Source: Eledone cirrhosa (lineage: Eukaryota). From it: a DNA stretch of 64,000 bases. Each line of letters opens with the position of its first letter. Within the stretch, counting starts at the first letter, position 1. The notes beneath the pieces are model-generated. The model was not told the DNA's origin, made no database searches, and saw nothing but the letters and a program-made list of their open reading frames with translations. The position numbers and the translations under genes are program-made. The stretch spans positions 171,492,001 to 171,556,000 of the forward strand of contig OZ024740.1 of the NCBI GenBank assembly GCA_964016885.1, read 5' to 3'. Shown piece by piece: positions 15,554-64,000 of this stretch.

Positions 15554-18441
15554 AATAATAATAATGAAATCATTGTGCACAGTGCTCAGGTGCACTACAA
15601 CTCATCAAAGGTGCATGTATAGTACATAGAATAATGTACAAATGTCAGGAAAATGAACAGTGTATGAGTCATGATATAATAACAATAACAATAATGAAAT
15701 ATTGCGTACAGTGCCCAGGTGCACCACAACTCATCAGAAAAGTGCATGTACAGTACATAGGGCAATGCACAAACATCAGTAAAATGAACAGTGCACGAGT
15801 CATGATACACACGTGTGCATGTGTATGGAAGGGGTACATCAGGTGTAGTTTTGGCGTATTTCGGGAAGCATGAGTGTCTTAAAGGATGCAGTGTCTCGGC
15901 AGCTAACAATTGACGCAGGCATTTTGTTCCAAGCTTCAGCAACTCTGAGCGTGAAAAAATGTCTGCGAGAGTCATGGGAGCTGTGCTGTTTTCTTATCTT
16001 GTAGGCATGTCCACGTGTGTTAGACACATGGAGATCAAAGAGGCGCTCAGGGTTGCAGTTAGCGAGATGGTTAAAAACTTTGTGGGTATTCACCAAGTCC
16101 ATTGCCAGACGTCGGAGCTTCAATCAATCCATGCCCAGGGAAGCAAGGCGTTCAGAGTATGGTAGGTGTCTGATGGAGGGTATGCGCTTGGTTGCACGTC
16201 TCTGAACAGTTTCCAGGAGGTCAATGTTCCGAGCAAGATAGGGGTTCCAGACTTATGATGCGAATTCCAAGTGTGGTCGCACCATAGCTGTATACAGTTT
16301 TAAATAGATGGCTGGAGAGCGGCTAACAAAGGTCTTGCTGAGTGATGCCAAGACACCCTCGGCCTTCTTGACAATCTTAGAGACATGCTTTGTCCAACGC
16401 AAATCGTTGCTGACAGTAATGCCCAGGTCACGTTCACAAGAGGACTTTTTGATGTCAGTGTTGTGGAGGGAGTATGTGGACGCTGGATTTTTCCTTCCAA
16501 AATGCATGGTGGTACACTTTTCCACAGCCAGCTTCAGTTGCCAGTCTGTGATCCATTGCTGCATTGTATCCAGGTCTGACTGTAGGAAAGAGTTTTAAAT
16601 TTCAGGATCAGTCCTTTTGATTTCAAGGTACAGCTTGATGTCATCTGCATATTTTAGTACCGTGGCATTCTGTAAGTTGGCATCTATGTCATTAATATAT
16701 GTCACAAACAAAAGAGGACCAAGAACAGATCCCTGTGGTACACCAGATGACATCTCATATGGTGAAGAATGCTGTCCTAGAACCGTGACTACTTCCTTTT
16801 GGCTGAGAATGAAGGATTTCAGCCAGTCGAAAAGATCATCCCTCATACCCATTGCAGAGAGTTTTGCCATAAGTCTTTTGTGTGGCACAGAATTAAAAGC
16901 CTTAGCAAAGTCAAGGTAAACAACATCCACCCATGAGCCGCTGTCAGTGATCCGGGTGATGTCCTCAAGGAACTCGATAAGCTGATCACAGCAGCTGGAG
17001 TTAGGGATAAATCCAAACTGTGATGGCCGGATGAGGCTGTGAGAGCTCCAGAAGTTCCAAAGTGTTTCTCTGACACAGGATTCCATCAGTTTTGCCATAC
17101 AGCTAGTAAGACTGACTGGACGATAGTTGACAGGGGAATGACACTGGCAGTTTTCCACTGCTCCGGAGTAGCACCATTGCTGAGACAGTATTGAAAGAAG
17201 AAAGAAAGCTGGCGCAAAAGGAAATCCCTGCCACGTTTGAGAAGCAGGTATGTCACACCATCAAGACCAGGGGAGGCATAGTTGCGCTTATTCTTAAGGT
17301 GACGTCGCAACATTGCAGGTGTAAATTCCATAGTTGTTATGGAATTTGATGTTAGAGATGGTGGAGATGGTACATTCTGGTTTTCAACCGTAAAAATACT
17401 TGCATAGCACTCAGCAATGAGTTCTGCGCATTCCTTGGGATCGTCAGTGATCTGGCTTTTGTGGGGATTGCGAAGAGGACCAACTGGAGAGTGAGGTCTC
17501 TGCTTTGAATGAACATATTTCCAGAACACCTTACTGTCAGGATTGGTTGCGATGCACTGTTCAAATTCAAGCACTGCCTTCTTTGTCACTTGCTTGAGAT
17601 GGTTAGAAGATTTATTCCGCTTTTTTCTGTTGGCATCTGATCTATGCAGTTTATATTCCCGTTCAGCGTTCCGACGTTCTTTCCTGGCAAGTCGGACCGC
17701 TGAAGTTTTCCAGTTTGCACTTTTGGGGTGGTTATTTTTCCGCTTCCATGGCACTGATGCTGCACACGCTATCCATATTGAGTCCAGGATGCTTTGGAGT
17801 ATAGAGTTCACATCTCCAGAGTTATACATCTCATGCCAGTTTGGGCGCTGTAGCTCAGTGCAGTACAAGTTCCAATCCGCCCTCTTCCAATCAAAGCAAG
17901 CAGATTGGAGATGGCTCTGGTTTTTGTTGCTGCCCTCAAGTGCCAGATTGGCAATGATCATAGCATGATCAGAGTCGCCTAGAGGTTCCTCAGTAGTACA
18001 ACTGATAACCACTTCAGGAGTAGTGGTGAAGATCAGGTCCAAAGTGTTGTCACCTCTTGTTGGAGACGTGACTACTTGTGACCAGTTTGAGTCCAGCACT
18101 AGTTCAAGGAAATCGTTTGCACCCTGTGGCCAACGAAAGGTTTCCCAATCGATCTCAGGATGATTGAAGTCACCTGCAATAAACACATAAGTGGCTGTTT
18201 TCTTGGCAGCAACTCTGAGGATATCGCAAAGCTGTGTGTCCTGATGGTAGTTTGGGGGTCGATAAACAACACCAAGCAGAAGTGTTGACATGGTCATACG
18301 TATGTCACAGAAAAAAACTTCTTCCTGTGATTCGTTCAAATCAACGCAAGGAATTACCGAAAAGTTTGAATGAACGTAGACCATCACACCACCACCACGG
18401 CGGTTAATGCGGTCCTTGCGGAAAAGGTTGTACCCAGTAAT
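15554..18441 (-). mobile_element. CR1-clade LINE, 5'-truncated (ORF2 EN-RT plus 3'UTR)
   Basis: GDFNHP, SDH, NYRPVSLTS, YLDFAKAF, GVPQGSVLGPLLF, YADD, VRPHLEFAS and FFTLRV..WN motifs with an (ATT)n tail. Near identical to 38918-41836. Carries a 28-bp deletion and stop codons. Confidence 0.95.
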
Positions 18442-20890
18442 CATCATCATCATCACCGTTTTACGTCCGTTCTTCCACGCTAGCATGGGTTAGACGGGTT
18501 GTCCTGTTGTGGGCAGTGTCTGGTCGGCTGACCATGCCTTGCTCATACAGGAACTGATCTGGCTTGATTTCTACAGCTGGATGCCCTTCCTAACACCAAC
18601 CTCATTTACAGTGAGTGCTGGGTGCTTTTTTGTGGCGCCTACACGTCCACTTTACATTGTGGGCTGGGTGCTTTTTTGCCGTGGCACCTCCACGACCACC
18701 TTGCGGTGGAGGCATATTGTCTATATGCTTCAGCTTGTACCCATGGGAGGTCGGGTACCCCATTACTGCGTGACGCCAGAAGTCACGGTCGTGTGTCATT
18801 GTCTTTGAGAGGTGTAATTAGGTACGGTCGGCTTTTATCACCTCATCCCAGGTCATCTTGGGTCTCCCCACTCCGCGGTTTCCATCAACTTTTAGTGCTC
18901 TGCACCTTTTTATGCAGCTGTCATCCTTCATACGCATCACATGTCCATACCAGCGCAACCGCCTCTCCTGTACACAGCATTTGATTCCTCTTATGCTCAG
19001 TCTCTCTCTCAATTCATTTATGCTTTGTCGTTCACGTATATTACTGTTACACATCCATCGGAGCATGCAGGCTTCGTTTCTCTCTAATCTACGTAAGTCT
19101 TCCACAGACAGCGTCCAGGTCTCACTACCATGCAACATCGCTGTTCGGATACACGCATCATACAGTCTGCCTTTCATTCTGAGGGAGAAGCCTTTTGCAG
19201 CTAGCAGTGGTAGTAGTTCCCTAAACTTCTTCCATCCCGTTCTTACCCTAGTTATTGTACTTTCTGAACACCCACCTCCATTGCTAATTCGGTCACCTAG
19301 GTAGCAGAAGCTGTCTACTGTTTCTACAGGGCCCTCCCAGAGATTGGTGGTACTTGTTTCCTGTGGCTGTTTGCTGCTTGCTGTCTCAGCACAGCTGCTG
19401 CATGTGAATCCTACATTCTTAATTAAGCTTCCTGAGATCCCGCTACATCTCTTGTGTACCCATTGTTTGCATTTGGGGCAGAGAATGGAGTTCCTACCTA
19501 CACCTTTCCTACATACTGAGCAAGGCCATTTCCCTGAGGGGATCTGGGTTCTGTTTTCTCGTCTACTTACAAGGACCTTAGTCTTTGTCATGTTGACTTT
19601 GAGACCCTTTCTTTCTAGTCCCTGCTTCCAAGTTTGGAATTTATTCTCTAGTTCTACCCTAGATTCAGCTATGAGTGCGAGGTCATCAGCATACAGGAGT
19701 TCCCATGGGCATCCAGTCTTAAACTCCTCCGTTATTGCCTGCAGGACTATGATGAACAGGAGAGGGCTAAGAACAGAGCTCTGGTGGACCCCAACCTGTA
19801 CGCTAAATTCCTTGCTATACTCATTGCTAATCCTAACTTTGCTGACTGCTCCCCTATACATGGCTTGTACCGCTTTCACAAGCCATTCATCTACTCCTAG
19901 TTTTCTAAGAGCCCACCAGATTACAGCACGTGGAACTCTGTCAAAGGCTTTCTCAAGGTCGACAAATGCCAAGTAGAGTGGCTTACTTTTAGCTAGGTAC
20001 TTTTCCTGTAATTGCCTCACAAGGAAGAGGGCATCGGTGGTGCCTCTTCCTGGTACAAACCCAAATTGCATCTCGTCTATTTTCACCCGGTCCCTAATCA
20101 GCTGTGCTATAACTCTTTCTGTTACTTTCATGACCTGGTCCATCAACTTTATACCTCTATAGTTTCCTCTATCTAGTGCATCGCCTTTACCTTTGTAGCA
20201 GTTGACAATGATGCTACTGCACCAATCTTTTGGTATGGCACCTTCTAGTATTACCTGGTTAAGGATACGTGTGGTCATAGTGTGACCTACAGACCCAGAT
20301 GCCCTCAGCATCTCGGCAGCTATACCCGATGGACCGGTTGCCTTCCCCATCTTCATATCTTTGATTGCCTTACTTACTACGCTGCTGCTGACTTGTACTG
20401 CTGGTCCCTCTATAGGGTCTACTTGGGGTAGGGCCTCTTCTTCCCATGCATTCTCCTCAATTAGTAATCTATCATAATGACTCTTCCATGCATCTTTCTT
20501 CTCAGCACTTGTGAGGGCAAGCTCACCTTTATCATTCCGGATACACTTCTCTCCAATGACATCACAACTATCTCTGACACACTGCCTCGCAATCTTGAAT
20601 ACCTCCTGTTTCTGGCCTTCATGTTGTAAAACATGCTTGAATTTTCTATCCTCTGCTTCCCTCCTAGCTAAGTATACTTGTCGCCTAGCTTCCCTCTTGG
20701 TCTCTATGTAATGTACCCTGCTCCCCCCGTTCTTCCATTCTTTCCATGCCTGTCTCTTGGCCTTAACTGCTTCATCTACCTTATTGTTCCACCACCAAGT
20801 CACTCTCCTCCTGCTTGAGGTCTTACTCCAGCCACAGACCTCATCCGTCGCCTCTAGTAAATTATTTTTTAGGAACTCCCAGTTCTCTAC
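18442..20890 (-). mobile_element. RTE-clade LINE, young and 5'-truncated (uninterrupted RT plus embedded zinc finger)
   Basis: 661-aa ORF 18818..20803 with RT motifs and YADD. The 3'UTR has hairpin repeats and a (GAT)n tail. The endonuclease is missing. Confidence 0.96.
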
Positions 20891-20899
20891 TGTAAATTT

Positions 20900-22260
20900 C
20901 AGCCGCCAGTCCTGATATCACTTCCAACCTGGCTACGAACAGCTCAGGTGACAGTGTGCACCCTTGGCAGTGGCCGACACCCACATTGAATGGTTTTGAC
21001 TTAGTTATACTTATCCAAACTCAAATACTAGGACATTTGTATAGAGGCTTCAAGGCAACAAGTAGCTGTCCATTGAATCTTCCACAACAGGTCCCATGGA
21101 ACACAGTTGCATGACTTTTCGAGATCTACGAAACAAGGCACAGAATACTTTCTATTTAAGGCTTTTAACATTTTGGGCTGAATTTCATCCTCCCCAGAGG
21201 CCTTGCCACATTTGAACTCTTTAATTGCTCTGGTGACCTCAGACTCTGAGAAGTTAGTCCCCATGTTTTAGCTTGGGATATTTTTACTGTCCCAGCCACA
21301 ACTTTTTGCACCTGCAAGTGCAAGGAGGAGGACAGATTTTCAAGTCAAGCTTTGTAAGCTTTCTCCTTGGTTCAGATGGCATCTTTAACCTCCTGATTGA
21401 AGCAAGGTATCCTCCTGCTGAGCTGAATAGTCTCCATTCTGTTTCAACGTCTTCAGTTTGCTCAGTGTGTTCTGAATTTGTATGCAATAATATCCTCATA
21501 TCTTGTCCTGACCTTCTTATCAGCCAATGTTTACCACCTTCTCCTGTAAGTCAAGCTGGACCTACAAATTTTGTAGGTCTTGACTTTAGGTAGTTACAAG
21601 TTGCAGATAACTAGATGTTGACAGCTCAGGCCCTGTCTTAATACGGACACCCAGCGCAGAATCAAAGAGATCAGAGACAATAACAAAATCATTTACTGAT
21701 CCCTGGCCCTGATTTCATGCATACCAAGTGTATTTACAGATGTCTTCATGGTGGAAGGTGTTCATAATGGAAAGCCCATTACTAGAACAGAAGTCTAATA
21801 AAGCCTCCATTTCATTTAGATTGGAAATACTATTCTTTCCAATCACTCTTTTTCATGTCTGGTGGTCAGTGCCAATATATGCATTGAATTCTCCCATTAG
21901 GATATATGACTCAGTCATAACTACAACGAATGCTGTCGTGACTACATCAAGGAAAGATCTGTATTCGGGCTCTTTGGTGCATAAACCTGCACCATCCACA
22001 AAGGCTAAGCTTCAAGAATCATCCATCTAAATCGACAATACCAGAGCCATGGAACTTTGTTGAGGAAACCCCAACTACATCTAGCCGATAGTATCTGGCC
22101 CCCTCTACTAGTTCCTGCTCCTTACCTGTAAGGGTTCTAATGTTCCAGTTGGCTATTTGCATCCCACATCTGCCAGAACAAGTCGCAAGCTCATCACCAG
22201 TTCTCACATTGTTTGATGGAGACTACAATATATTTTTTCAACAGGCCCCTTGTTACCCTG
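20900..22260 (-). mobile_element. Decayed RTE LINE of a second family (Rex3/Expander-like), EN and partial RT
   Basis: IANWNIRTLTGKEQELVE..YRLDVVGVSSTK, EVTRAIKEFKCGKASGEDEIQPKMLKAL and CFVDLEK. Confidence 0.78.
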
Positions 22261-22961
22261 CATGAAGGACGATGTTATATGAATGCTTTTATTGCAGTTT
22301 TTGGTGGTCTTATTTGCACCAGTCCCAATTTGGTACTTTTCTTAGACCCGTGAAGGATAATATCTATCTCTCCTTCAAATTACTCTGACTACAAAATTAA
22401 GAAAGTACATATTGGATAATGTAGTCAGAAATACTGAAAAAAAAAGCGTTTTCCGGCCATATTATTTCCTAAAGCATGGGTTAAACTTGCAGGGCCCCAT
22501 GACAAGCTTCTCTAGTTGCTGTATCATTTGCATACCCCCGCACCAAAAACTTTGGCTTTCATTTCCTCCTCCAACACTTTAGTCCAGTCTTTCTTCGTCT
22601 TCTTCTTCCTCTACTTCTTTCCACATTAATTTCCGTCACTCATCAACGCATGACCCAACCATCACAATACTCATTACTGGCTCTATATCTATCATCTGCA
22701 ATTCATTGGTTATCTACTTCTCTCTGAGCAATATTCCACTGAAGCATTCTCATTTTCGTTCTTTCCAGTCTTTTTGCTGCTCCACTGTTCAGTTCCTAAA
22801 ATGTCCACTCTTTCTACCATCACCATGCCCAATCCTCTTTCTCCAAAACAGTTAGATATTATGCTTATCAAATTTTAGTTTACCTCTGGACACTTACATG
22901 CTAGGAGAAAATTCTAAATTAGTATAAAAAAAATGGAGATATATTTTTATGGCATTATTTT

Positions 22962-24078
22962 TGGCAGTATCGGTAGAGGGTCGGACGCCATGCTTTCCAG
23001 CATAGTTACGTCCCTTTACGATCTGAGTTCAAATCCCGCCGAGGTTGACTTTGCCTTTCATCCTTACGGGGTCGATAAAATAAAGTACCAGTAATGAACT
23101 GGGTAATTGCTGGCCTTGTGCCTAAAGTAGAAACAATTTAAAAAAAAAAGATTTTCTCTAACCCTTATGGAAATCAAAAAATTGACACATACCTCCCTAA
23201 ACCAAGTAATTGTTTCTACTTTTGGCACAAGGCCAGCAATTATCCCAGTGTATTACTGGTACTTTGTTTTATCGACCCCGTAAGGATGAAAGGTAAAGTT
23301 AACCTCGACGGGATTTGAACTCAGTCCGTAAAGGGACGTAACTGCTGCAAAGCATGGCGTCCGATACTGCCAATCCACCTCCCTAAACCAAATAATTGTT
23401 TCTACGTTAGGCACAAGGCCAGCAATTACCCAGTGCATTACTGGTATTTTATTTTATCGACCTCGTAAGGATGAAAGGCAAAGTTAACCTTGGCGGGATT
23501 TGAACTCAGAATGGCAAGGGCCGTAACTCTATACGTCAAAGCATGGCGTCCGACCCTCTACCAATGCTGCCAATAAACCAAATAATTGTTTCTACTTTAG
23601 GCACAAGGGCAGCAATTACCCAGTGCATTACTGGTACTTTATTTTATCGACCCCGTAAGGATGAAAGGCAAAGTCAACCTCGGCGGGATTTGAACTCAGA
23701 TCATAAAGGGACGTAACTATGCTGGAAAGCATGGCGTCTGACCCTCTACCGATACTGCCAATCCACCTCCCTAAACCAAATAATTGTTTCTACGTTAGGC
23801 ACAAGGCCAGCAAATAACCAGTGCATTACTGGTATTTTATTTTATCGACCTCGTAAGGATGAAAGGCAAAGTTAACCTCGGCGAGATTTGAACTCAGAAT
23901 GGCAAGGGCCGTAACTCTATACATCAAAGCATGTCGTTCGACCCTCTACCAATACTGCCAATAAACCAAATAATTGTTTCTACTTTAGGCACAAGGCCAG
24001 CAAATACCCAGTGCATTACTGGTACTTTATTTTATCGACCCCGTAAGGATGAAAGGCAAAGTCAACCTCGGCGGGATC
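22962..24078. mobile_element. Cluster of six tRNA-derived MetaSINE-type elements (one on +, five head-to-tail on -)
   Basis: A-box tggcagtatcggtag, B-box gagttcaaatcc, core gcctttcatccttacggggtcgataaaataaagtaccag. Units are about 190-198 bp. Confidence 0.92.
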
Positions 24079-34639: not shown

Positions 34640-36010
34640 CTAATCTGAATACTTAGAACTAAATGAACTAAATTCATCAAAGCTGGAGGTGAACCAATTA
34701 TCAAAGCACTTCAACATCTTTTTAACTGTATCATTACTACAGGAAAAAGCCCAGACATGTTCAAGAAAGCATTGATAGTTGTACTCTACAAAAAAAGTAG
34801 CAGACTTGATTGTGGGAACTATCGTCCTATCAGCCTATTGAGTCACCTTTACAAGCTTTTCATGAGTATCATTGTAGCACGAGTGAAGTCAGACCTTTAC
34901 ACCTCATTTCCTGAAACACAAGCTGCGTATCAACCTGGAAGAGGTACCATTGAGCAGATCCTAGCTATTGAACAAGTCACTGAGAAATCAATAGAATTCA
35001 ACAACCCTGTGCACATCACCTTCATTGACTTCACAAAAGTTTTTGACAACGTGAAATTACCCAGCTTGTGGCAACTCTTAAACAAGACCTCAATTAACAA
35101 AAAATACATCAACCTACTGAAAGAAACTTACACCAACTCAACAGCATATATCAAAACAGATTTTGGGAACTACACGGTCTTGAAGGGAGTTAAGCAGGGG
35201 GATGTACTATCAGCACTTCTTTTCTGTATAGTTATAGCTGCACTTATCTACCAAACTAAAGAGGAATGCTCCTCTGGCTATCAAATCTTAGCTATGAGGA
35301 CAATCTGGCCATCATGAGTTACTCTAGAATTGATCTGCAAGAACTGAATATACTGGCCAAACATTTGCATCAACACTTCCAAAACAAAATGTATGTCAAC
35401 TGATAAAAACAATGCCAATCTCGAACTCACAATCTACAAACAGCAAATTGCTCAAGTTATGGAGTTTGTATATCTCGGTCACAAACTATCAAACAACAAT
35501 GGAATAGTTGCTGCACAGTATCACATCGCTCTAGGTTGGGCAGCTTTCAACAAGAACAAGGAAGTACTAACATCAAAATGAGTTTCCTATCATTTGAAGG
35601 TTAAGATCTTTGATACTTACATTCTACCAGTTGTTATATGGTCTTGACTGTGTTAATTGGACGACAAGGTCACTTCAGGAGCTCTTTACATTCTACAACC
35701 ACATCATGAGACTTATGACTAGCAAGCGGCTCAGCGACCGTATCTGTATCAGTGAGTTGCTCAAGATTACCAAACTTAGACCAATTACATCAATTGTCAA
35801 GTCAAAAGTACTCAACCTATATGGTCATATAAAAAAAATCAACTCGTGGTGTAAGTAGGTTATGCTTGGAAGGAAGGTTGGCTGGTAAGAGAAGCAGAGG
35901 CTGGCAGCCAAAACTGGCTTGATAATGTCAACTTATGGACTAGACTTGATCTTTGCTGCTGGTGATCGAACTTTGTGGGGAGAGATATCTCATGATGCGC
36001 AGTCTGCAAC
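34640..36010 (+). mobile_element. Decayed non-LTR retrotransposon RT (RTE-group)
   Basis: ORF 34757..35317 has NYRPISLLSHLYKLF, FIDFTKVFD and GVKQGDVLS. Downstream are EFVYLG and LYGHI. Confidence 0.85.
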
Positions 36011-36974
36011 TGGCGGAGTTTAAGTGTCACAAAAAAAAAATCTAAATGAACTCTGCTAAAGTTACTCAAGAGCCAGGCGGAAGTGTTAAACCAGAAAATG
36101 GATTACACCTACCACCCAAGTATTCAGAATGCAAAGAGCCAAAACAAATACCAAAAGGCATCTCATCTGATGCTTCAATAACTCCATCAATTCACCATTG
36201 GTACTTTAATTTATCAACCCCGAAAGGATGAAAGGCAAATTTGAACGGAGAATACAGAGAGCCAGAAGAAATACCTCAGGACATTTTGTTCTACACTAAC
36301 AATTCTGATGATAAATGAAAAAAATAGTGTTAGCATTAGAAGGTAGACAGCCAAATCAATATTAAATTATTAATATATGTATTGTTGGTGCCATGATAAA
36401 ATACACCCAGCATACTCTATAATGTACGTTAGTGTTGGAGTCATGATAAAATGCTCCCAGTACATATTGTACAGGTTGAGCATAGATATCACTCTAAGAT
36501 TGGGTGATTAGTGTTACCAAAATCATCAATGAAATTTTTCTCCAAGAATTTATTCTAATCTATTCAGACAAAAGAGCTGTAACAAGATATAGTTTAATAA
36601 CTTGGAATATTCTGAAATATTTTCATTTAATAATTAGGAAGGGCATCCAGTTGTAGAAAACCTGCCAGACAGTCCTATACGAGCAAGACAACCAATCTTG
36701 CCTCAAGTGGGACAATTCCCGTCTAAACCCATGCTAGCGTGGAAGATAGACATTAAACGATGATGATGATGATTTCTGATGAATTCTAGGTATTTATGAA
36801 AATTAATAAATTAAAAGAAAATGAAAATACAAGTGTTTTCGGGTGATTTTTTCCTGATAAAACATGGGTCAGCTATGCAAACCCTATTACATACTTTTAT
36901 ATTTTGCTCAATTATTTATATCCCTTCTACCTCATCATATCCCCATCCTGGCTTTCCTGTCTTCCTCCAAAAAT

Positions 36975-39205: not shown

Positions 39206-41971
39206 TCAGGTGTAGTTTTGGCGTATTTTGGGAAGCATGAGTGTCTTAAAGGATGCAGTGTCTCGGCAGCTAACAATTGACGCAGGCAGTTTGTTCCATG
39301 CTTCAGCAACTCTGAGCGTGAAAAAATGTCTGCGAAAGTCATGGGAGCTGTGCTGTTTTCTTATCTTGTAGGCATGTCCACGTGTGTTAGACACATGGAG
39401 ATCAAAGAGGCGCTCAGGGTTGCAGTTGGCGAGATGGTTAAAAACTTTGTGGGTATTCACCAAGTCCATTGCCAGACGTCGGAGCTTCAATGAATCCATG
39501 CCCAGGGAAGCAAGGCGTTCAGAGTATGGTAGGTGTCTGATGGAGGGTATGCGCTTGGTTGCACGTCTCTGAACAGTTTCCAGGAGGTCAATGTTCCGAG
39601 CAAGATAGGGGTTCCAGACTGATGATGCGAATTCCAAGTGTGGTCGCACCATAGCTGTATACAGTTTTAAATAGATGGCTGGAGAGCGGCTAACAAAGGT
39701 CTTGCTGAGTGATGCCAAGACACCCTCGGCCTTCTTGACAATCTTAGAGACATGCTTTGTCCAACGCAAATCGTTGCTGACAGTAATGCCCAGGTCACGT
39801 TCACAAGAGGACTTTTTGATGTCAGTGTTGTGGAGGGAGTATGTGGACGCTGGATTTTTCCTTCCAAAATGCATGGTGGTACACTTGTCCACAGCCAGCT
39901 TCAGTTGCCAGTCTGTGATCCATTGCTGCATTGTGTCCAGGTCTGATTGTAGGAAAGAGTTTTAAATTTCAGGATCAGTCCTTTTGATTTCAAGGTACAG
40001 CTTGATGTCATCTGCATATTTTAGTACCGTGGCATTCTGTAAGTTGGCATCTATGTCATTAATATATGCCACAAACAAAAGAGGACCAAGAACAGATCCC
40101 TGTGGTACACCAGATGACATCTCATATGGTGAAGAATGCTGTCCTAGAACCGTGACTACTTCCTTTCGGCTGAGAATGAAGGATTTCAGCCAGTCGAAAA
40201 GATCATCCCTCACACCCATTGCAGAGAGTTTTGCCATAAGTCTTTTGTGTGGCACAGAATTAAAAGCCTTAGCAAAGTCAAGGTAAACAACATCCACCCA
40301 TGAGCCGCTGTCAGTGATCCGGGTGATGTCCTCAAGAAACTCGATAAGCTGATCACAGCAGCTGGAGTTAGGGATAAATCCAAACTGTGAGGGCCGGATG
40401 AGGCTGTGAGAGCTCCAGAAGTTCCAAAGTGTTTCTCTGACACAGGATTCCATCAGTTTGGCCATACAGCTAGTAAGACTGACTGGACGATAGTTGACAG
40501 GTGACATGCGGTTGCCCTTTTTGAACAGGGGAATGACACTGGCAGTTTTCCACTGCTCCGGAGTAGCACCATTGCTGAGACAGTATTGAAAGAAAAAAGA
40601 AAGCTGGCGCAAAAGGAAATCCCCGCCACGTTTGAGAAGCAGGTATGTCACACCATCAAGACCAGGGGAGGCATAGTTGCGCTTATTCTTAAGGTGACGT
40701 CGCAATATTGCAGGTGTAAATTCCATAGTTGTTATGGAATTTGATGTTAGAGATGGTGGAGATGGTACATTCTGGTCTTCAACAGTAAAAATACTTGCAT
40801 AGCACTCAGCAATGAGTTCTGCGCATTCCTTGGGATCGTCAGTGATCTGGCTTGTGTGGGGATTGCGAAGAGGACCAACTGGAGAGTGAGGTCTCTGCTT
40901 TGAATGAACATATTTCCAGAACACCTTACTGTCAGGATTGGTTGCGATGCACTGTTCAAATTCAAGCACTGCCTTCTTTGTCACTTGCTTGAGATGGTTA
41001 GAAGATTTATTCCGCTTTTTTCTGTTGGCATCTGATCTATGCAGTTTATATTCCCGTTCAGCGTTCCGACGTTCTTTCCTGGCAAGTCGGACCGCTGAAG
41101 TTTCCCAGATTGCACTTTTGGGGTGGTTATTTTTCCGCTTCCGTGGCACTGATGCTGCACACGCTATCCATATTGAGTCCAGGATGCTCTGGAGTATAGA
41201 GTTCACATCTCCAGAGTTATACATCTCATGCCAGTTTGGGCGCTGTAGCTCAGTGCAGTACAAGTTCCAATCCGCCCTCTTCCAATCAAAGCAAGCAGAT
41301 TGGAGATGGCCCTGGTTTTTGTTGCTGCCCTCAAGTGCCAGATTGGCAATGATCATAGCATGATCAGAGTCGCCTAGAGGTTCCTCAGTAGTACAACTGA
41401 TAACCACTTCAGGAGTAGTGGTGAAGATCAGGTCCAAAGTGTTGTCACCTCTTGTTGGAGAGGTGACTACTTGTGACCAGTTTGAGTCCAGCACTAGTTC
41501 AAGGAAATCGTTTGCACCCTGTAGCCAACGAAAGGTTTCCCAATCGATCTCAGGATGATTGAAGTCACCTGCAATAAACACATAAGTGGCTGTTTTCTTG
41601 GCAGCAACTCTGAGGATATCGCAAAGCTGTGTGTCCTGATGGTAGTTTGGGGGTCGATAAACAACACCAAGCAGAAGTGTTGACATGGTCATACGTATGT
41701 CACAGAAAAAAACTTCTTCCTGTGATTCGTTCAAATCAACGCAAGGAATTACCGAAAAGTTTGAACGAACGTAGACCATCACACCACAACCACGGCGGTT
41801 AATGCGGTCCTTGCGGAAAAGGTTGTACCCAGTAATGGTGAAAACCCCATCACAGAGTAAGGAATGTGCCCATGTTTCCGTGACTGTGATGAAGTCAGGG
41901 TCGATGCTTCTGACGTAGGATTCGAACAGATGTATCTTGTTGCATAAACTGCGAGCATTTAATGACAACAA
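39206..41971 (-). pseudogene. CR1 ORF2 (AP endonuclease plus reverse transcriptase), single in-frame TAA at 39962-39964
   Basis: ORFs 39962..41971 and 39206..39931 are in the same frame, 30 nt apart. NARS, TETW, GDFN, SDH and YADD motifs are present. Confidence 0.92.
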
Positions 41972-42027
41972 TTTGTACCCTGCTCGCAGTTTATGATGGT
42001 GTGTAGAGGGTGGCAGGTTGTTCTGGT

Positions 42028-43392
42028 TTAGTTTCCCAGAGTTGTAGCAGTTTTTACATTGCCAGTTATTGCGGATAGATCACACTCAGACCAGCTGGTA
42101 TCTCTCTTCCACGTTTCACCAGCCTTGACAAACCTCCAGATCTGCCCATCATCACGCAGACTGAAACTTTCATCTTGTGCTGAGTTCCGATTCAAGGAAG
42201 CTGCAGCACGTAGTTTTGGACGTACATGGGGTGGTAGGCCTGGGCGTGTTCGGAAGGTAATCCGATTTTCACGCCCAGCTTTAGCAGAGGCCAGATGATA
42301 TGAGGTTGCCTCTGCGGGGTCCGAGAAAGACAGCCTGATGAGTCTGGGTTTTGGACCAGGTCAACCAAGGCGGAGGGCACCCTTTGGGGGAACACAGCCT
42401 AGGTCTTTGGCTGAGCTGGCAGCAAATGCCTGAAGATCAGCCTTGTCCTCTGGTACCCCAATGGCAATCACTTCATGGGTAGCAGATTCCGCAGTCTTTT
42501 CAGTCTTTCCAGCAAGAGGTACAGGGAGATTCTTTAGCAAGGCATTCCGATAAGACCCCTCATTGTGGGGTCCTACCCGAATGCTTGCCTCTATTCCTGC
42601 AACTTCCCTTCTCAGAGCAGAAATCATTAGTTGCAGTTCCGCAAAATCTGTACTGGTCGGTTGTTGTTGTTGTTGTTGTTGCTGCTGCTGCTGCTGTCGT
42701 TGTTGGTGATGATGATGTTCCTCCACGGGAATGGCAGGGGAGGACACAGTCGCAGGTTGTTGCTGTTGTTGGTGATGATGATGTTCCTCCACGGGAATGG
42801 CAGGGGAGGACACAGTCGCAGGTTGTTGCTGTTGTTGTTGTTGGTGATGATGATGTTCCTCCACGGGAATGGTAGGGGAAGACACAGTCACCAGTTGTTG
42901 GTGTCGAGATGTACTGGGAGTTGAAGACATGGGTTGTTGTTGTTTCTGATGTTCTCCCACAGGAATAACAGTAGAAGCCAGTGTCATGGGTTTTTGCCGT
43001 TGTTCAGTAACAATGGTAGAGGAAGACATAGTCATTGGTTTTTGTTGTTGTTTTTCAATAACATTAATAACATTCGTGAAGGCAGGCACACAGGCCAGAC
43101 ACTGAAAGGACCAGGATTTTAGCTGGACCATCTCCCATATTCCATCCATCATAGCATTATGATGTCTCTTTTTTTGGCCTGGGATCCTCTGGAAGCCTGT
43201 GGCGCATTGAAGGCAGACAGAGATGCGACAGGTTCCACATTCGACCCAGCGATTACGGAACGAGTTTTCGGGTTCCGCACAGATATGGCAGATGTGATTT
43301 TCTGGGCAATGTTCTATCTTGGGACATCGGCCGGTTTTGTCGCATATTTCATCGATGGATATCACCATGGCAATTTTGTTATTTCTACCCAT
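42028..43392 (-). pseudogene. CR1 ORF1 (PHD-like finger, Q/H repeats, coiled coil), one internal TGA at 42361-42363
   Basis: CHIC..WVECGTC..C..C..FQCLAC and VIAIGVPED. The frame continues after the stop as RLG*PGPKPRLIRLSF...TTLGN*. Confidence 0.82.
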
Positions 43393-46224: not shown

Positions 46225-47915
46225 TTGTACGACAACTACAGGAGAAGTACTTAGCTAAAAGTAAACCCCTCTACTTAGCTTTTGTTGACTTGGAGAAAGC
46301 CTTTGACAGAGTCCCCCGCTCCATTATCTGGTGGGCACCTTAAAAAACTAGGTGTAGATGAATGGATTGTGAGAGCTATACAAGCCATCTATAAAGAAAC
46401 AGTCAGCAAGGTTAGAATTAAAAATGAATATAGTGAAGAGTTTAGCGTAAAAGTTGGTGTTCATCAAGGCTCTGTCCTTAGCCCCCTCCTGTTTATTGCC
46501 CTTCAGGCTATAACAGAGGAGTTTAAGACCGACTGTCCATGGGAACTTCTATATGCAGATGATCTAACTCTCATAGTTGAATCTATGGCCGAACTAGAGA
46601 AGAAATTCCAAACATGGAAGCATGGCCTAGAATCAAAAGGCCTTAAAATTAACTTGTCTAAGACTAAAGTTCTAGTATGTAGAAAGGAAAATAGAGCACA
46701 GGTGCCCTCTGGGAAATGGCCATGCTTAGTGTGTAGGAAAGGAGTAGGTAGGAATTCCATTTTATGTCCCAAATGCAAACTATGGGTACATAAAAGATCT
46801 AGTGGGATCACAGGCAAGCCATCTAAGAACATAGATTTTATATGTGGCCGATGCTCAGGTGCAATAAGTAGCAGGTGCCCACAGGATACTAGCTCCTTCT
46901 ACTGCCCAGATGGTTCTATAGAAATAGTGGACACTTTCCGTTACCTGGGTGACAAAATCAGCAGTGGTGGAGGTTGCCCTGAAAGTACAGTAGCCAGAGT
47001 TAGAATTGGATGGAAAAAGTTCAGAGAGCTTATACCACTGTTGGCCACAAAAGGTTTCTCTCTAAAAATGAAAGGCAGATTGTACGATGCTTGTATACGA
47101 ACAGCAATGTTACATGGCAGTAAGACATGGGCATTGTGTGCAGAGGACCTGCGCAGAAAGGAATGAAGCATGCATACTCTGTTGGATGTGTAATAGTCAT
47201 ATACACGAACGGCTAAACATAAATGAACTAAGTGAGAAATTAGGAATAAGAGGAATCAGATGCTGTTTACCTGAGAAGATTACGTTGGTATGGTCATGTG
47301 ATGCACATGAAAGATGACAGCTGTATAAAAAAGTGCAGGGCGATCAAAATTGATGGAAGTTATGGAGTAGGTAGACCCAGAAAAACCTGGGACAACTTAA
47401 TAAATTCCGACCTTGCACACTTGCGCCTCTCTAAGACAATGTCACTGGACCGAGATCTTTGTCGCCACGCAGTAATACAGAAGACCCGCCTTCACTACAT
47501 GCAAAGTTAACCTACAGTCAGTAGGCTCCCCCAAACCAAACATACACCCTAACCCCCTACTCCATCCTTCCACTCCCGCCAACACCACCCTTTCTCTATA
47601 AAGTTATGTTGGAACCACAACATCCAGCCCAAACAAATGAGGTTGTGTAGGTGTCACAACCCCCCCCCCCAAAAAAAAAAAAACACTGTCCACGCTGTAA
47701 TGTGGTCATGTAGGTAACACGGTAAAAACCTCCCAGTCCACACTGTAAATATGGTTGGTGTTAGGAAGGGCATCCAGCAGCAGAAAACTTGCCAGATAGT
47801 CCTATACGAGCGAGACATGGTCACCCGACCAATCTTGCCTCTAAATGGGACAATTCCCGTCTAACCCATGCTAGCGTGGAAGATAGACGTTAAACGATGA
47901 TGATGATGATGATGA
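46225..47915 (+). mobile_element. RTE LINE, 5'-truncated
   Basis: ORF 46282..47166 has GVHQGSVLSP, YADD and the zinc finger. Followed by a 3'UTR and (GAT)n tail. Confidence 0.93.
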
Positions 47916-59820: not shown

Positions 59821-60468
59821 TGAATGGAGTTCCACCGAAGCAGGTGGAGATGTTCAAGTATCTCGGGGCCGTGTTCACCAGTGATGGGTGGCAGGAGGCT
59901 GAGTTAATTGCAAGAATTATAAGAGCTGGTGCTGTAATGTGCCAGCTTCAGCATTCGGTAATCAGAAGAAAGGAGGTAGATGTAAAAGCCAAACTCGCTT
60001 TCTTCAATTCAATATTCGTGCCAACCCTTACCCATGGTATGAATCTTGGGTAATGACCGAAAGAATACGATCATGAATTCAAGCTGCCAAAATGGGATTT
60101 ATTCGAAGGGTTTTATGGAGTAACGTTACTCGATAGAGTGTGTAGCTCGGAGATCAGAGAGTCACTTCATGTAGAGCCGCTATTTCCCCGAATTGAGAGA
60201 TCACAGCTTCGATACTATGGGCATGTGGTTAGAATGTCTCAGGAAATAATCGCTGGACATATTTTACAGGCAAAACCAACCGGCAGGAGACTCAGGGGTA
60301 GATCCAGAGCAAGATGGTTGGATAACATCCATGAGCTTGGCTGGTCTCGCTTGGGGGATTCAGCCCGATCAGTTGGAGAAGGTTGCTTTTGATAAACCCA
60401 CTGGAAGGATTACTTGAGGACTCTGCCCCCACGACCCTCTCAACAATAAGTCTTTGAAGAAGAAGAAC
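59821..60468 (+). mobile_element. 5'-truncated RTE (Rex3/Expander-like) LINE with a 26-bp TSD
   Basis: FKYLGAVFTSDG, IFVPTLTHG, IERSQLRYYGHVVRM, and a (GAA)n tail. TSD tttaaattctttaRcaatgatctctg at 59795-59820 and 60469-60494. Confidence 0.9.
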
Positions 60469-61378
60469 TTTAAATTCTTTAGCAATGATCTCTGCATCGG
60501 TAATATTAGACTGTTTAGTTTCTTTGCAAAAGTAATTATGTTGCACAATTATGGATAGAACTTGTCATTCCGTTTAATTAATTATGATGTAATAGTGGAA
60601 AACGCACTCTGCGTTATGCACCTGTGAATGGTGGAGGAATGGAGTTAAATATCAATTTTAATTAAAACAACAGGAGGCCGGACTGCAAAAAACACTATAT
60701 ATATTTCAATGGCCTGGTTACGTAAGACCCTTGCGATATTATCAGGTGTGGATTGCATAATTAGCTAATCAATAAAAGGAATTGCGGCAAACACAAATAG
60801 AGAATAGAGAAAATATTTGATTCGGAGATGGCCTACGAAACCGTTGTTATTGTTGCGGCATACAATCTCTCTCTGAACAAACTTTCGATAAATAAGCGGA
60901 CCTAAAAGCAACGTAAAACCCCTTATTTTCCTGCAGTAACTTGCATCTTGCACAGGGACCTAGAACCGAGGCCCCCTCTCACTTCATCCGATAACGGACG
61001 GACAAGTAATTTTATATGCACATTACATGGAAAAAGTGGTCAATATTCCCACTGCATTGTGAATGTAATTGAAATTATTATTTTCACCACTTCTACATTT
61101 CCATACCGATATACATGTATATATATATATATATTTGTAGTTTTTCCAAATTGAAGGATGAGTATTTAAACTTTATTTTATTCTGAGTTAAGGCTCTATT
61201 GATTTTTCCCTTGATTTCACAAAATTCTGTGGATGAATCTATGTCTTGATTCTTTTTGAATTGAGTTTGAATTATTTTCCCACATCTTACGTTAACTTTT
61301 TTTCCATTTTGAAGTTATAGTCACTTATATATTATGAAATACTGTTGGCTTCACGCTCACAATAATGTTTATACTTTC

Positions 61379-61430
<52 letters not shown>

Positions 61431-61442
61431 GATATATATACG

Positions 61443-61784
61443 ATATTAATAAATGGAAACTATATTTATAAAACCATATTTATTTCATTATACATATTTC
61501 AAGGACACCAAGTTAAATTATGGTGTGCTTTCATCAGATAAAATATAATATAGAACAGTTTTATAAATAAATATTGACATACCCTTAAAGAATGCAACCA
61601 TTACTGTTGGAAGCTTCCAACAGTAATGGTTGCATTCTTTAAGGGTATGTCAATATTTATTTATAAAACTGTTCTATATTATATTTTATCTGATGAAAGC
61701 ACACCATAATTTAACTTGGTGTCCTTGAAATATGTATAATGAAATAAATATGGTTTTATAAATATAGTTTCCATTTATTAATAT
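61443..61784. repeat. Perfect palindrome, 171-bp arms, no spacer
   Basis: Centre gttggaag|cttccaac at 61613/61614. Abuts (TA)n. Confidence 0.95.
61682..61746 (+). ncRNA. Minimal type-I hammerhead ribozyme (candidate; mirror copy on - strand in the left arm)
   Basis: Stem I tattttat/atgaaata, core CTGATGA, stem II aagcacacca/tggtgtcctt, GAAA, short stem III and an AUA cleavage triplet. Confidence 0.68.
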
Positions 61785-61866
61785 TGTATTTTTATATCAG
61801 TAATATTGTGCTTTATATCAGTTATTAAAATATTTGCTTGTTGTATCCCAACAATTTAAATAGAAC

Positions 61867-62363
<497 letters not shown>

Positions 62364-62448
62364 ATCTTCTATACACAATCATATACACCCGTGTATATTT
62401 ATCTATCTATCTATCTCTATATATATTATGCGTTTATGGAAAATAAAG

Positions 62449-62486
<38 letters not shown>

Positions 62487-62491
<5 letters not shown>

Positions 62492-62993
62492 AGTTAATAT
62501 ATATTAATATATGATAAACACATACGTGTTTGTATTGCAAAAGACGAAGTTAGCTAGAATGAAATAAACTAATTAAAATTAATACAATTTGTCTGTCTCG
62601 ATATAAGTCAATAAAGACAAGCTTATATTGGCAAAAGCCGTGATTCCTGGACAAATTTAAATTTCAAAATCCAAACCTGCTCCGTAGATGAATTTGAACT
62701 TCGAAACCTAAATATGTTTCGCAACGATGGTATAAAAAGTGAAATATTCAAATCTTCTGTGCTTATCAACAGGAATCCAGTAAAATTAGTAAATTTCACC
62801 TTCAAAAATTTTGTAGGACTGATTCACACGAGGTATAATCAGCTATACTAGCTATAAGCTTGTCTTTATTGACTTATATCGAGACAGACAAATTGTATTC
62901 ATTTTAATTAGTTTATTTCATTCTAGCTAACTTCGTCTTTTGCAATACAAACACGTATGTGTTTATCATATATTAATATATATTAACTTGTAT
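62487..62993. repeat. Inverted repeat, 141-bp arms, 225-bp spacer
   Basis: 62487-62627 versus 62853-62993 with one mismatch. Abuts (TA)n. Confidence 0.93.
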
Positions 62994-64000
62994 TTCACTG
63001 CTCAGAAATGCTTCTTTCTTTGAGCTAATTAATTGTAAATGACTTTGAGTTTAAACTCTAAATATAATATAATATATATATATATATATAAATACATGGA
63101 GAAAGCTAATAGCGATACTCCGGCCAAATCCCAACTCACTCAACAAACATTAGGAAATACCTGAGTATATTCCCAATTAAACGTTTGGGGTGCTAACTAT
63201 ATTGTATTGTGTGGATAATTGGCTGTATTATTTCATATGAGATATATCAAATATATCATTTCCCAGACGACTCGTTTCATTATAAGATTTCTACAAGTTG
63301 GGTGAAAATATACCAACTTATGTAGAAGCTTGTATAAGATCAACAGATCTTATATATATATATATATACCTTGTTTTTTTCGTATATATATATTTTTTCT
63401 CATATATATTTCCTCCCTCATTTTGCGTCTATGTACTTTTTGGTTTGATTCATGTGATAGAAGATATTAACTAATTGTTTGTTTAATCATTACATTCTAT
63501 ACTTAAAATTTATCTTCCATTCTTCGTTACCGAACTATCGTTCAATATATGGGTAATATATCTCTAATATCCAATATTGATCCCCTTTTCATAATTTATA
63601 ACTATAATTTACACATCTTCCTATTTATTATATTTTTTTATTTACTTCAATCAAGATTTTAACTTTTAATTTATAATTTTCAATCTTATTACTAATTGTA
63701 ATTTCCATTTTGAAACCATAATATCTAGACCCTAGAATTAAGTTTATATTATCTTCGCGGGTGATGGTCAATTCTATTGTCCAAACATGATTTAAGGGTT
63801 GTATTGGAACCTATTGAAACTTATACTCCACCACTACCACAAAGTTTCGGTTGGTTGCCACTGAACGAGCGACTAACAGTAAACTACAACTTGGTGGCTG
63901 GTACGAACTCTATGACTGTGTCACCTTACCTGCTTGGATGGGGTGATTGATTGGTTGGGAAAGAGGGGGGGGGGTGTGCCTAGTCTAGTTTCGTTGTATT

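Follow-up and report, generated by a model that had tools for sequence, protein, structure and literature searches.

To judge from its sequence, the long palindrome in the 64,000-nucleotide stretch of Eledone cirrhosa DNA analysed here (the window) is made of two opposed copies of the terminal repeat (pLTR) of an abundant Penelope-like element (PLE) with Hydra-clade motifs. It is probably a coding-free, head-to-head stub of that element, left when two cDNAs primed on opposite strands of the target were joined through their 3' ends. The locus itself is ordinary, one of thousands, and its value lies in what such copies tell us about PLE integration, for which this genome offers thousands of head-to-head insertions as test material. 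An inverted pLTR with a one-sided tail has already been published; what is new is this family and the statistics of how its ends are paired.

The original prediction described a spacerless palindrome of 342 bp. On re-measurement, exact complementarity indeed covers 171 bp per arm (61443-61784) around a centre between 61613 and 61614, with a spacer of 0, and a looser inverted-repeat call gives arms of 182 nt at 98%. As limits of the insertion, however, the predicted coordinates fall short on both sides: the left arm begins at 61438, not 61443, and a tail runs on to ~61872. We number the arm from position 1 at 61614 and call its short 3' end, at 171-176, S and its tailed end, at 259-260, T; boundaries were taken from BLAST ends and may be wrong by a few bases. 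The left arm (61438-61613, minus strand) is an antisense pLTR copy that ends at S, at arm position 176, and its alignment (row L084) spans -1 to 176 at 100% to the copy in locus L031. The right arm (61614-61789, plus strand) is the sense copy of positions 1-176; relative to the usual 5' end at -11, its first ~10 nt are missing. It leads into an ~85-bp element tail (61790-61872, plus strand), which reaches the long end T at arm position ~260 and gives way at ~61872 to a (CA)n(TA)n target tract (61871-61993), with the next element family inserted at its end. Only the right side carries a tail, so the insertion is asymmetric; it totals ~435 bp, has no coding sequence and consists of the pLTR only. 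On the left lies a (TA)n target tract (61382-61437), within which a piece of the element's short end is duplicated as a brief stub (~61427-61437). A target-site duplication is unreadable because (TA)n on one side and (CA)n(TA)n on the other border the insertion. The earlier description of the insertion as very recent holds loosely, in that arms are identical in 6 of 39 head-to-head pairs, but the tail of the window copy bears private changes.

Searches of the genome placed the arm within a complete element. With 40 of 175 candidates scored, the arm had 57 matches at 96-100%, many of them arranged as inverted pairs. At locus L031 it forms the 3' terminus of an element that has a 540-aa reverse transcriptase (RT) plus GIY-YIG frame and a ~1.6-kb 3' UTR, and a second copy, inverted and tailed, stands at that element's 5' end. 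The arm was also present in all 20 loci selected by their ORF. In the tandem copies L066 and L067, arm and tail end ~50 nt before the ATG and lead into the 5' UTR, so that together they constitute the pLTR and the start of the next unit. The full arrangement, a partial tandem of the pLTR with an inverted 5'-truncated copy and a tail at one end, recurs in L031, L064, L066, L067 and others. The full ORF, of ~742 aa, has a YRDD and a VVY...NYVG core (read by eye), as in an RT with a C-terminal GIY-YIG nuclease; Pfam returned no significant family for the 540-aa fragment. There are 323 protein relatives at E<=1e-20, nearly all unnamed, and the closest one with a name is a hypothetical protein from the cephalopod Argonauta hians, 39% identical. 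A protein search found 29,240 candidates in the genome, and all 150 of the 150 scored were 89-99% identical. By exact-pattern search with reversed-sequence controls, a 28-mer just downstream of the ribozyme has 43,456 copies in the 3.0-Gb genome (control, 0). These results suggest a Hydra-type family that is very large and was recently active, in an animal genome of 3 Gb. Thus the suggestion that the palindrome is a PLE by-product is borne out, the arm being the terminal repeat of an RT plus GIY-YIG element.

The assignment to a Hydra-type family rests on motifs. The DKT motif and the CxCX5C linker were each found in 16 of 20 ORF frames, the misses being truncated or broken frames; in the printed proteins the nuclease lacks CCHH, and CxxC and CxH flank the conserved E and N. 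These features, together with a C-terminal GIY-YIG domain, a minimal hammerhead near the 3' end and (TA)n targets, are as given for the Hydra clade in PMC8557442. Unlike that clade as described there, RWR replaces RWK (literal RWK in 0 of 20 frames, RWR at that place in 4 of 5 printed frames), and the element, with an ORF of ~2.2 kb and a 3' UTR of ~1.6 kb, comes to ~4 kb, whereas published lengths are generally <3 kb. Also unlike Hydra families, it has tens of thousands of end copies. The supplement to PMC8557442 includes one octopus Hydra family, Hydra-1_Obim of Octopus bimaculoides, and the ribozyme sequence of the window family is unlike that in the Hydra-1_oBim row.

The evidence on integration comes mainly from two samples of copies. 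Sample 1, selected on an intact ribozyme, was drawn from the first 100 exact ribozyme matches on the window's contig and kept 80 loci after removal of the overlapping L101, L104, L105 and L116; sample 2 was picked by the 28-mer outside the ribozyme and kept 78 after removal of the overlapping L217, L242 and L243. Rows are not fully independent, since L100, L140/L141 and L241 contain mirror duplicates and both samples come from one contig. Across copies, 3' ends fall at two fixed sites, S (171-176) and T (259-260). At the other end, 62 of 153 arms in sample 1 start at -13 to -1, 17 of them at -11, which we infer from these starts to be the 5' end of the element RNA; copies of older subfamilies, where distance from the young reference accounts for ends at 25-41, start at the same 5' place.

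The two 3' ends are almost always paired with one another. The 43 adjacent head-to-head pairs of sample 1, in 40 loci, comprise 36 S+T, 2 S+S and 1 T+T, with 4 unclassed, and the 21 pairs of sample 2 comprise 18 S+T and 3 unclassed. Over both samples, 54 of 57 classifiable pairs are S+T (binomial p=4e-13 against one half, with rows that are not fully independent). Longer insertions, in which internal sequence separates the arms, likewise terminate in S at one edge and in T at the opposite edge (e.g., L258, L273, L280 and L285), and in 37 of 41 pairs dinucleotide runs occupy both outer flanks, in keeping with a (TA)n preference. Each of the fixed ends coincides with a short TA-like word of the element, matching the (TA)n/(CA)n target over 3-8 nt (L066:3458-3735 and window 61785-61872), which suggests brief pairing between primer and template. 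Some whole insertions are repeated nearby as mirrored or duplicate copies (L100, L140/L141 and L311/L314), representing later duplications or assembly duplicates.

The arms of a pair appear to come from one source. Non-majority bases shared by paired arms number 41, compared with 6.6 for shuffled partners (maximum 17 in 500 shuffles), and arms diverge by 1.8% within loci versus 3.0% between loci (39 pairs, with L100 counted twice and pairs with <40 nt of overlap left out). Shared variants and lower divergence within loci together indicate one source per insertion. Homogenisation of the arms by gene conversion is not needed as an explanation, as arm and tail diverge equally from the majority sequence (1.63% and 1.58%). 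In the de-duplicated set, without L141 and the second L100 pair, the S arm reaches >4 nt further 5' than the T arm in 20 of 34 S+T pairs, and the tail is on the T arm only; in these 20 pairs each arm therefore holds sequence that its partner lacks, and neither was copied from the other. In 5 of the 34, the T arm starts at 155 or beyond and the arms barely overlap. The joins, counted in the same set, are insert-free in 18 of 41 cases, 9 of which overlap by 2-4 nt (13% expected, p=1.7e-4); the other 23 bear inserts of 1-26 nt rather than clean microhomology, and some inserts are copied from nearby element sequence (L134, L148 and L157).

These observations bear on the model of self-priming, in which a single cDNA snaps back on itself at a self-complementary word and serves as its own template, so that both arms derive from the same element. 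Such a model, on an antisense template, is proposed for PLE inversions in PMC3846280. It would account for the variants common to paired arms, for the inserts copied from nearby sequence, for the identical window arms meeting at AGCT and for the recurrence of spacerless centres at AGCT (5 loci) and CCGG (66 loci). However, a fold-back copy cannot exceed its template, as happens in 20 of 34 S+T pairs, and the arms of 5 barely overlap; self-priming also offers no reason for the second arm to terminate at the other of the two fixed sites. We therefore consider it unlikely as the general explanation, although it may account for a minority of copies, the window copy included: snap-back synthesis would equally well produce two arms that match perfectly over 171 bp and meet at a self-complementary word. 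The fold-back origin first proposed for the palindrome is accordingly possible for this copy and cannot explain most others, whose arms are not nested.

Paired ends, a shared source and non-nested arms instead favour two primed cDNAs that were end-joined. In this sequence of events, the element's RT-endonuclease would cut both strands of the (TA)n tract in one event, by analogy with an anole element in vitro (PMC11167929). The same source RNA, an uncut transcript, would serve as template for two cDNAs, whose priming sites in its upstream pLTR would be S for one and T for the other; synthesis of both would proceed toward the RNA's 5' end, and the short arms would be run-off cDNAs primed in the upstream pLTR. 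Host end-joining would then close the head-to-head junction between the cDNA 3' ends. Since most T arms run past the S site, a single RNA template would need strand displacement, or else a second RNA would be involved. In the window copy both cDNAs may have stopped ~10 nt short and annealed through AGCT, a self-complementary meeting point that would yield the zero spacer. We lean slightly toward the broader view that asymmetric twin priming, with S on one strand and T on the other from one transcript, is the standard route of PLE integration. If true, it would settle whether PLE inversions arise by self-priming or by double priming, and the prediction of two primed cDNAs, for which the pairing statistics argue, is testable in a system like that of PMC11167929.

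The zero spacer of the window copy can be traced to the element itself. A 10-bp near-palindrome centred on AGCT (61612-61615 here, where the arms overlap by 4) lies ten bases inside the usual 5' end, and both window arms end there, at its 4-bp self-complementary word. Five loci have this exact centre with differing flanks, and in the 4 of the 5 that can be compared by arm, the diagnostic variants differ between loci and are common to each locus's own two arms. A predicted second hotspot was confirmed at a neighbouring CCGG word, which has 66 spacerless centres. Ten of these 66 loci were examined: long-armed S+T insertions account for 4, the tail is shortened in 1, and the remaining 5 show interruptions or deletions. 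One of the ten, L299, has a mirror of only ~20 nt followed by a jump to position 60, which may reflect snap-back or later deletion.

It might be thought that a shared centre points to a self-propagating, non-autonomous unit, like a retrozyme or a MITE, that is copied whole. The five loci with one exact centre are what such copying would produce, and non-autonomous units do exist here, the non-coding 557-bp tandem unit of another family lying 0.6 kb away. Yet the 4 comparable same-centre loci carry different diagnostic variants, each common to its own arms, and centres vary widely across the 43 pairs of sample 1. Moreover, the ribozymes are on opposite strands rather than in tandem, which precludes release of a monomer, and in the read-through RNA they are predicted to be sequestered (arm-arm pairing P=0.999, ribozyme stems P=0.0). 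The related non-LTR retrozymes are PLE-derived units with same-strand tandem, mostly canonical type-I ribozymes and circular monomers, according to PMC7229834 and bioRxiv 10.64898/2026.07.22.740005. The window insertion resembles them in being small, non-coding, hammerhead-bearing and related to PLE pLTRs, and differs in being an inverted pair with one minimal ribozyme per strand instead of a same-strand tandem. Among the public sequencing runs screened, none from RNA matched a sizeable portion of the window. On these grounds we regard whole-unit copying as very improbable, and the self-contained retrozyme-like unit offered by the original prediction as an alternative is not upheld.

We also considered whether the palindrome could be a fold-back artefact of library preparation or assembly, since perfect spacerless arms resemble such chimeras. 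In the four public runs searched for reads or contigs spanning the locus, records piled up on the repeat and none spanned it, which leaves room for this reading. On the other hand, the mirror stops at the family's short end with the tail on the other side, and the flanks are unmirrored; within three sister loci sharing this centre, the two arms show 6, 2 and 6 differences; and junctions of the short end with (TA)n are present, as loose ends, in raw reads of another individual. The different flanks and variants at a shared centre in fact indicate repeated independent formation and real DNA. An artefact is thus the least probable of the explanations weighed here, and we retain the joining of two primed cDNAs as the preferred reading.

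Published units of endonuclease-bearing (EN+) PLEs, as described in PMC8557442 and PMC3846280, include an inverted 5'-truncated copy, a pLTR and a one-sided tail, and palindromic head-to-head junctions are documented there and in PMC8969392. The window family shares with them the head-to-head arms, palindromic junction, tail at one end, pLTR ribozyme, (TA)n targets and lack of a discernible target-site duplication. It differs in its tail of ~85 bp, compared with 30-40 bp, and in that the window insertion is made up wholly of pLTR; in addition, S+T pairing and arm provenance are counted here over about 60 pairs. The origin of the inverted and tandem structures of PLEs is named as unresolved in PMC8557442. 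Our literature search, which missed most subscription papers, found no paper stating obligatory S+T twin priming or a two-strand model of PLE inversions.

The closest experimental parallel is the Poseidon element of Anolis carolinensis, for which PMC11167929 describes two internal RT start sites in vitro that bound the tail, cutting and extension of both strands, an AT-rich target and an uncut RNA template. The two start sites and the AT-rich target have counterparts in the window family, and the use of both strands and of an uncut template would be further likenesses. The anole element belongs to another clade, however, and no strand difference in start site was seen for it in that study, in contrast to the pairing of S with T. 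Its start site is moreover called non-homologous to the target, whereas starts here lie at TA-like words matching the target.

A second parallel is L1 twin priming, in which primings on opposite target strands lead to an inverted insertion joined at microhomology, with arms that do not overlap and a second site that varies. In the window family, by contrast, both sites are fixed and the arms usually overlap.

Each arm carries a minimal type-I hammerhead, at 61682-61746 on the plus strand and as a mirror copy at 61481-61545 on the minus strand, and both fold as originally drawn, with predicted cuts after 61738 and 61489. Motif, folding and covariation bear on the plus-strand copy. Its stem I (61682-61689 with 61739-61746) has 8 bp, one of them G-U; the core CUGAUGA (61690-61696) is followed by a stem II with 9 of 10 bp and by GAAA; and helix III is a short, near-palindromic segment of 6 nt, followed by UA and the predicted cut. 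A motif scan of both strands of the whole window returned five matches, namely the one at 61690, its mirror, the pair in the next palindrome and a weak one at 36776. An Rfam scan of 60000-64000 gave 13 matches at E<=5 and no hammerhead, a result uninformative for minimal variants. The 54-nt ribozyme has 2,609 exact genomic copies (reversed control, 0), and the full core is intact in 80 of 91 arms chosen through a motif lying outside the ribozyme, N7 being its only freely varying position; the ribozyme is therefore not a chance match.

Variation among these arms suggests constraint on the fold. In stem II the pairs 85-112 (GC/AT), 88-109 (AT/GC) and 89-108 (TA/CG) are swapped on both sides, the pair 91-106 is broken in about a third of the 91 arms, and stem I varies within pairing; these covariation counts represent a few subfamily events, not 91 independent ones. 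Helix III occurs in two alternating forms, a perfect palindrome and one with G-U pairing, as would be expected for dimeric activity. From these patterns we infer selection on the ribozyme within the source lineage. Of the stems, only II is supported by thermodynamic folding, with a z of -1.8 for the ribozyme alone; stem I pairs with P=0.47 in the ribozyme alone and 0.002 in the context of the arm, and helix III has P=0.001 as a monomer and a self-duplex of -2.2 kcal/mol in silico.

At the window locus, read-through RNA is computed to form a hairpin of -279 kcal/mol; whichever strand is transcribed, the antisense arm emerges first, so sequestration of the ribozyme is predicted. The window copy would thus be a silent passenger, its ribozyme buried in a long hairpin. 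The family seeds many long perfect hairpins, which could yield double-stranded RNA or DNA fragility. We also asked whether ribozyme cleavage defines the inserted 5' ends and rejected this, as only 4 of 102 arms start at 118-134 and none at the cut site, +126. The RNA copied into insertions is likely uncut, in keeping with the absence of 5' ends at the cut site and with the anole element.

The palindrome is followed, over the next 1.2 kb, by two more long inverted repeats. The nearer (61993-62359) is a second palindrome with a 26-nt centre and a different minimal hammerhead in each arm (CUGAAGA core), with predicted cuts after 62238 and 62114. Its 49-nt ribozyme has 2,097 exact copies, and the copies share a fixed 5' end and terminate at either of two fixed sites separated by ~55 bp. 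At L199 a GIY-YIG frame with a CxxxxCxxC linker and CCHH lies between inverted copies, and L195 has an RT frame; by these signatures the family is of the Neptune type of PLE. The third insertion (62487-63070), also head-to-head, derives from a 557-bp non-coding tandem monomer (L311-L316), of which a 35-mer has 849 exact copies, and shows the same pairing of a short and a tailed end with TA flanks. A canonical hammerhead was sought in this third repeat family and not found, and the family is a candidate ribozyme-less, non-autonomous PLE passenger. The short-plus-tail rule is thus seen in all three neighbouring families (Hydra-type, Neptune-type and 557-bp tandem). Between 61382 and 63070, within about 1.6-1.7 kb, three unrelated PLE-type families have inserted successively in TA tracts, and each insertion leaves TA runs open to further insertion.

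Elsewhere in the window, no host exons were recognised among frames of at least 170 aa. Long frames at 16595-20917, 34667-35317, 39206-42079 and 46279-47166 are like LINE endonuclease/RT proteins, and imperfect inverted repeats of ~180 bp occur at 22961-24077. A short inverted repeat at 63323-63350, just before a TA tract, is possibly a tiny stub of the same type as the head-to-head insertions.
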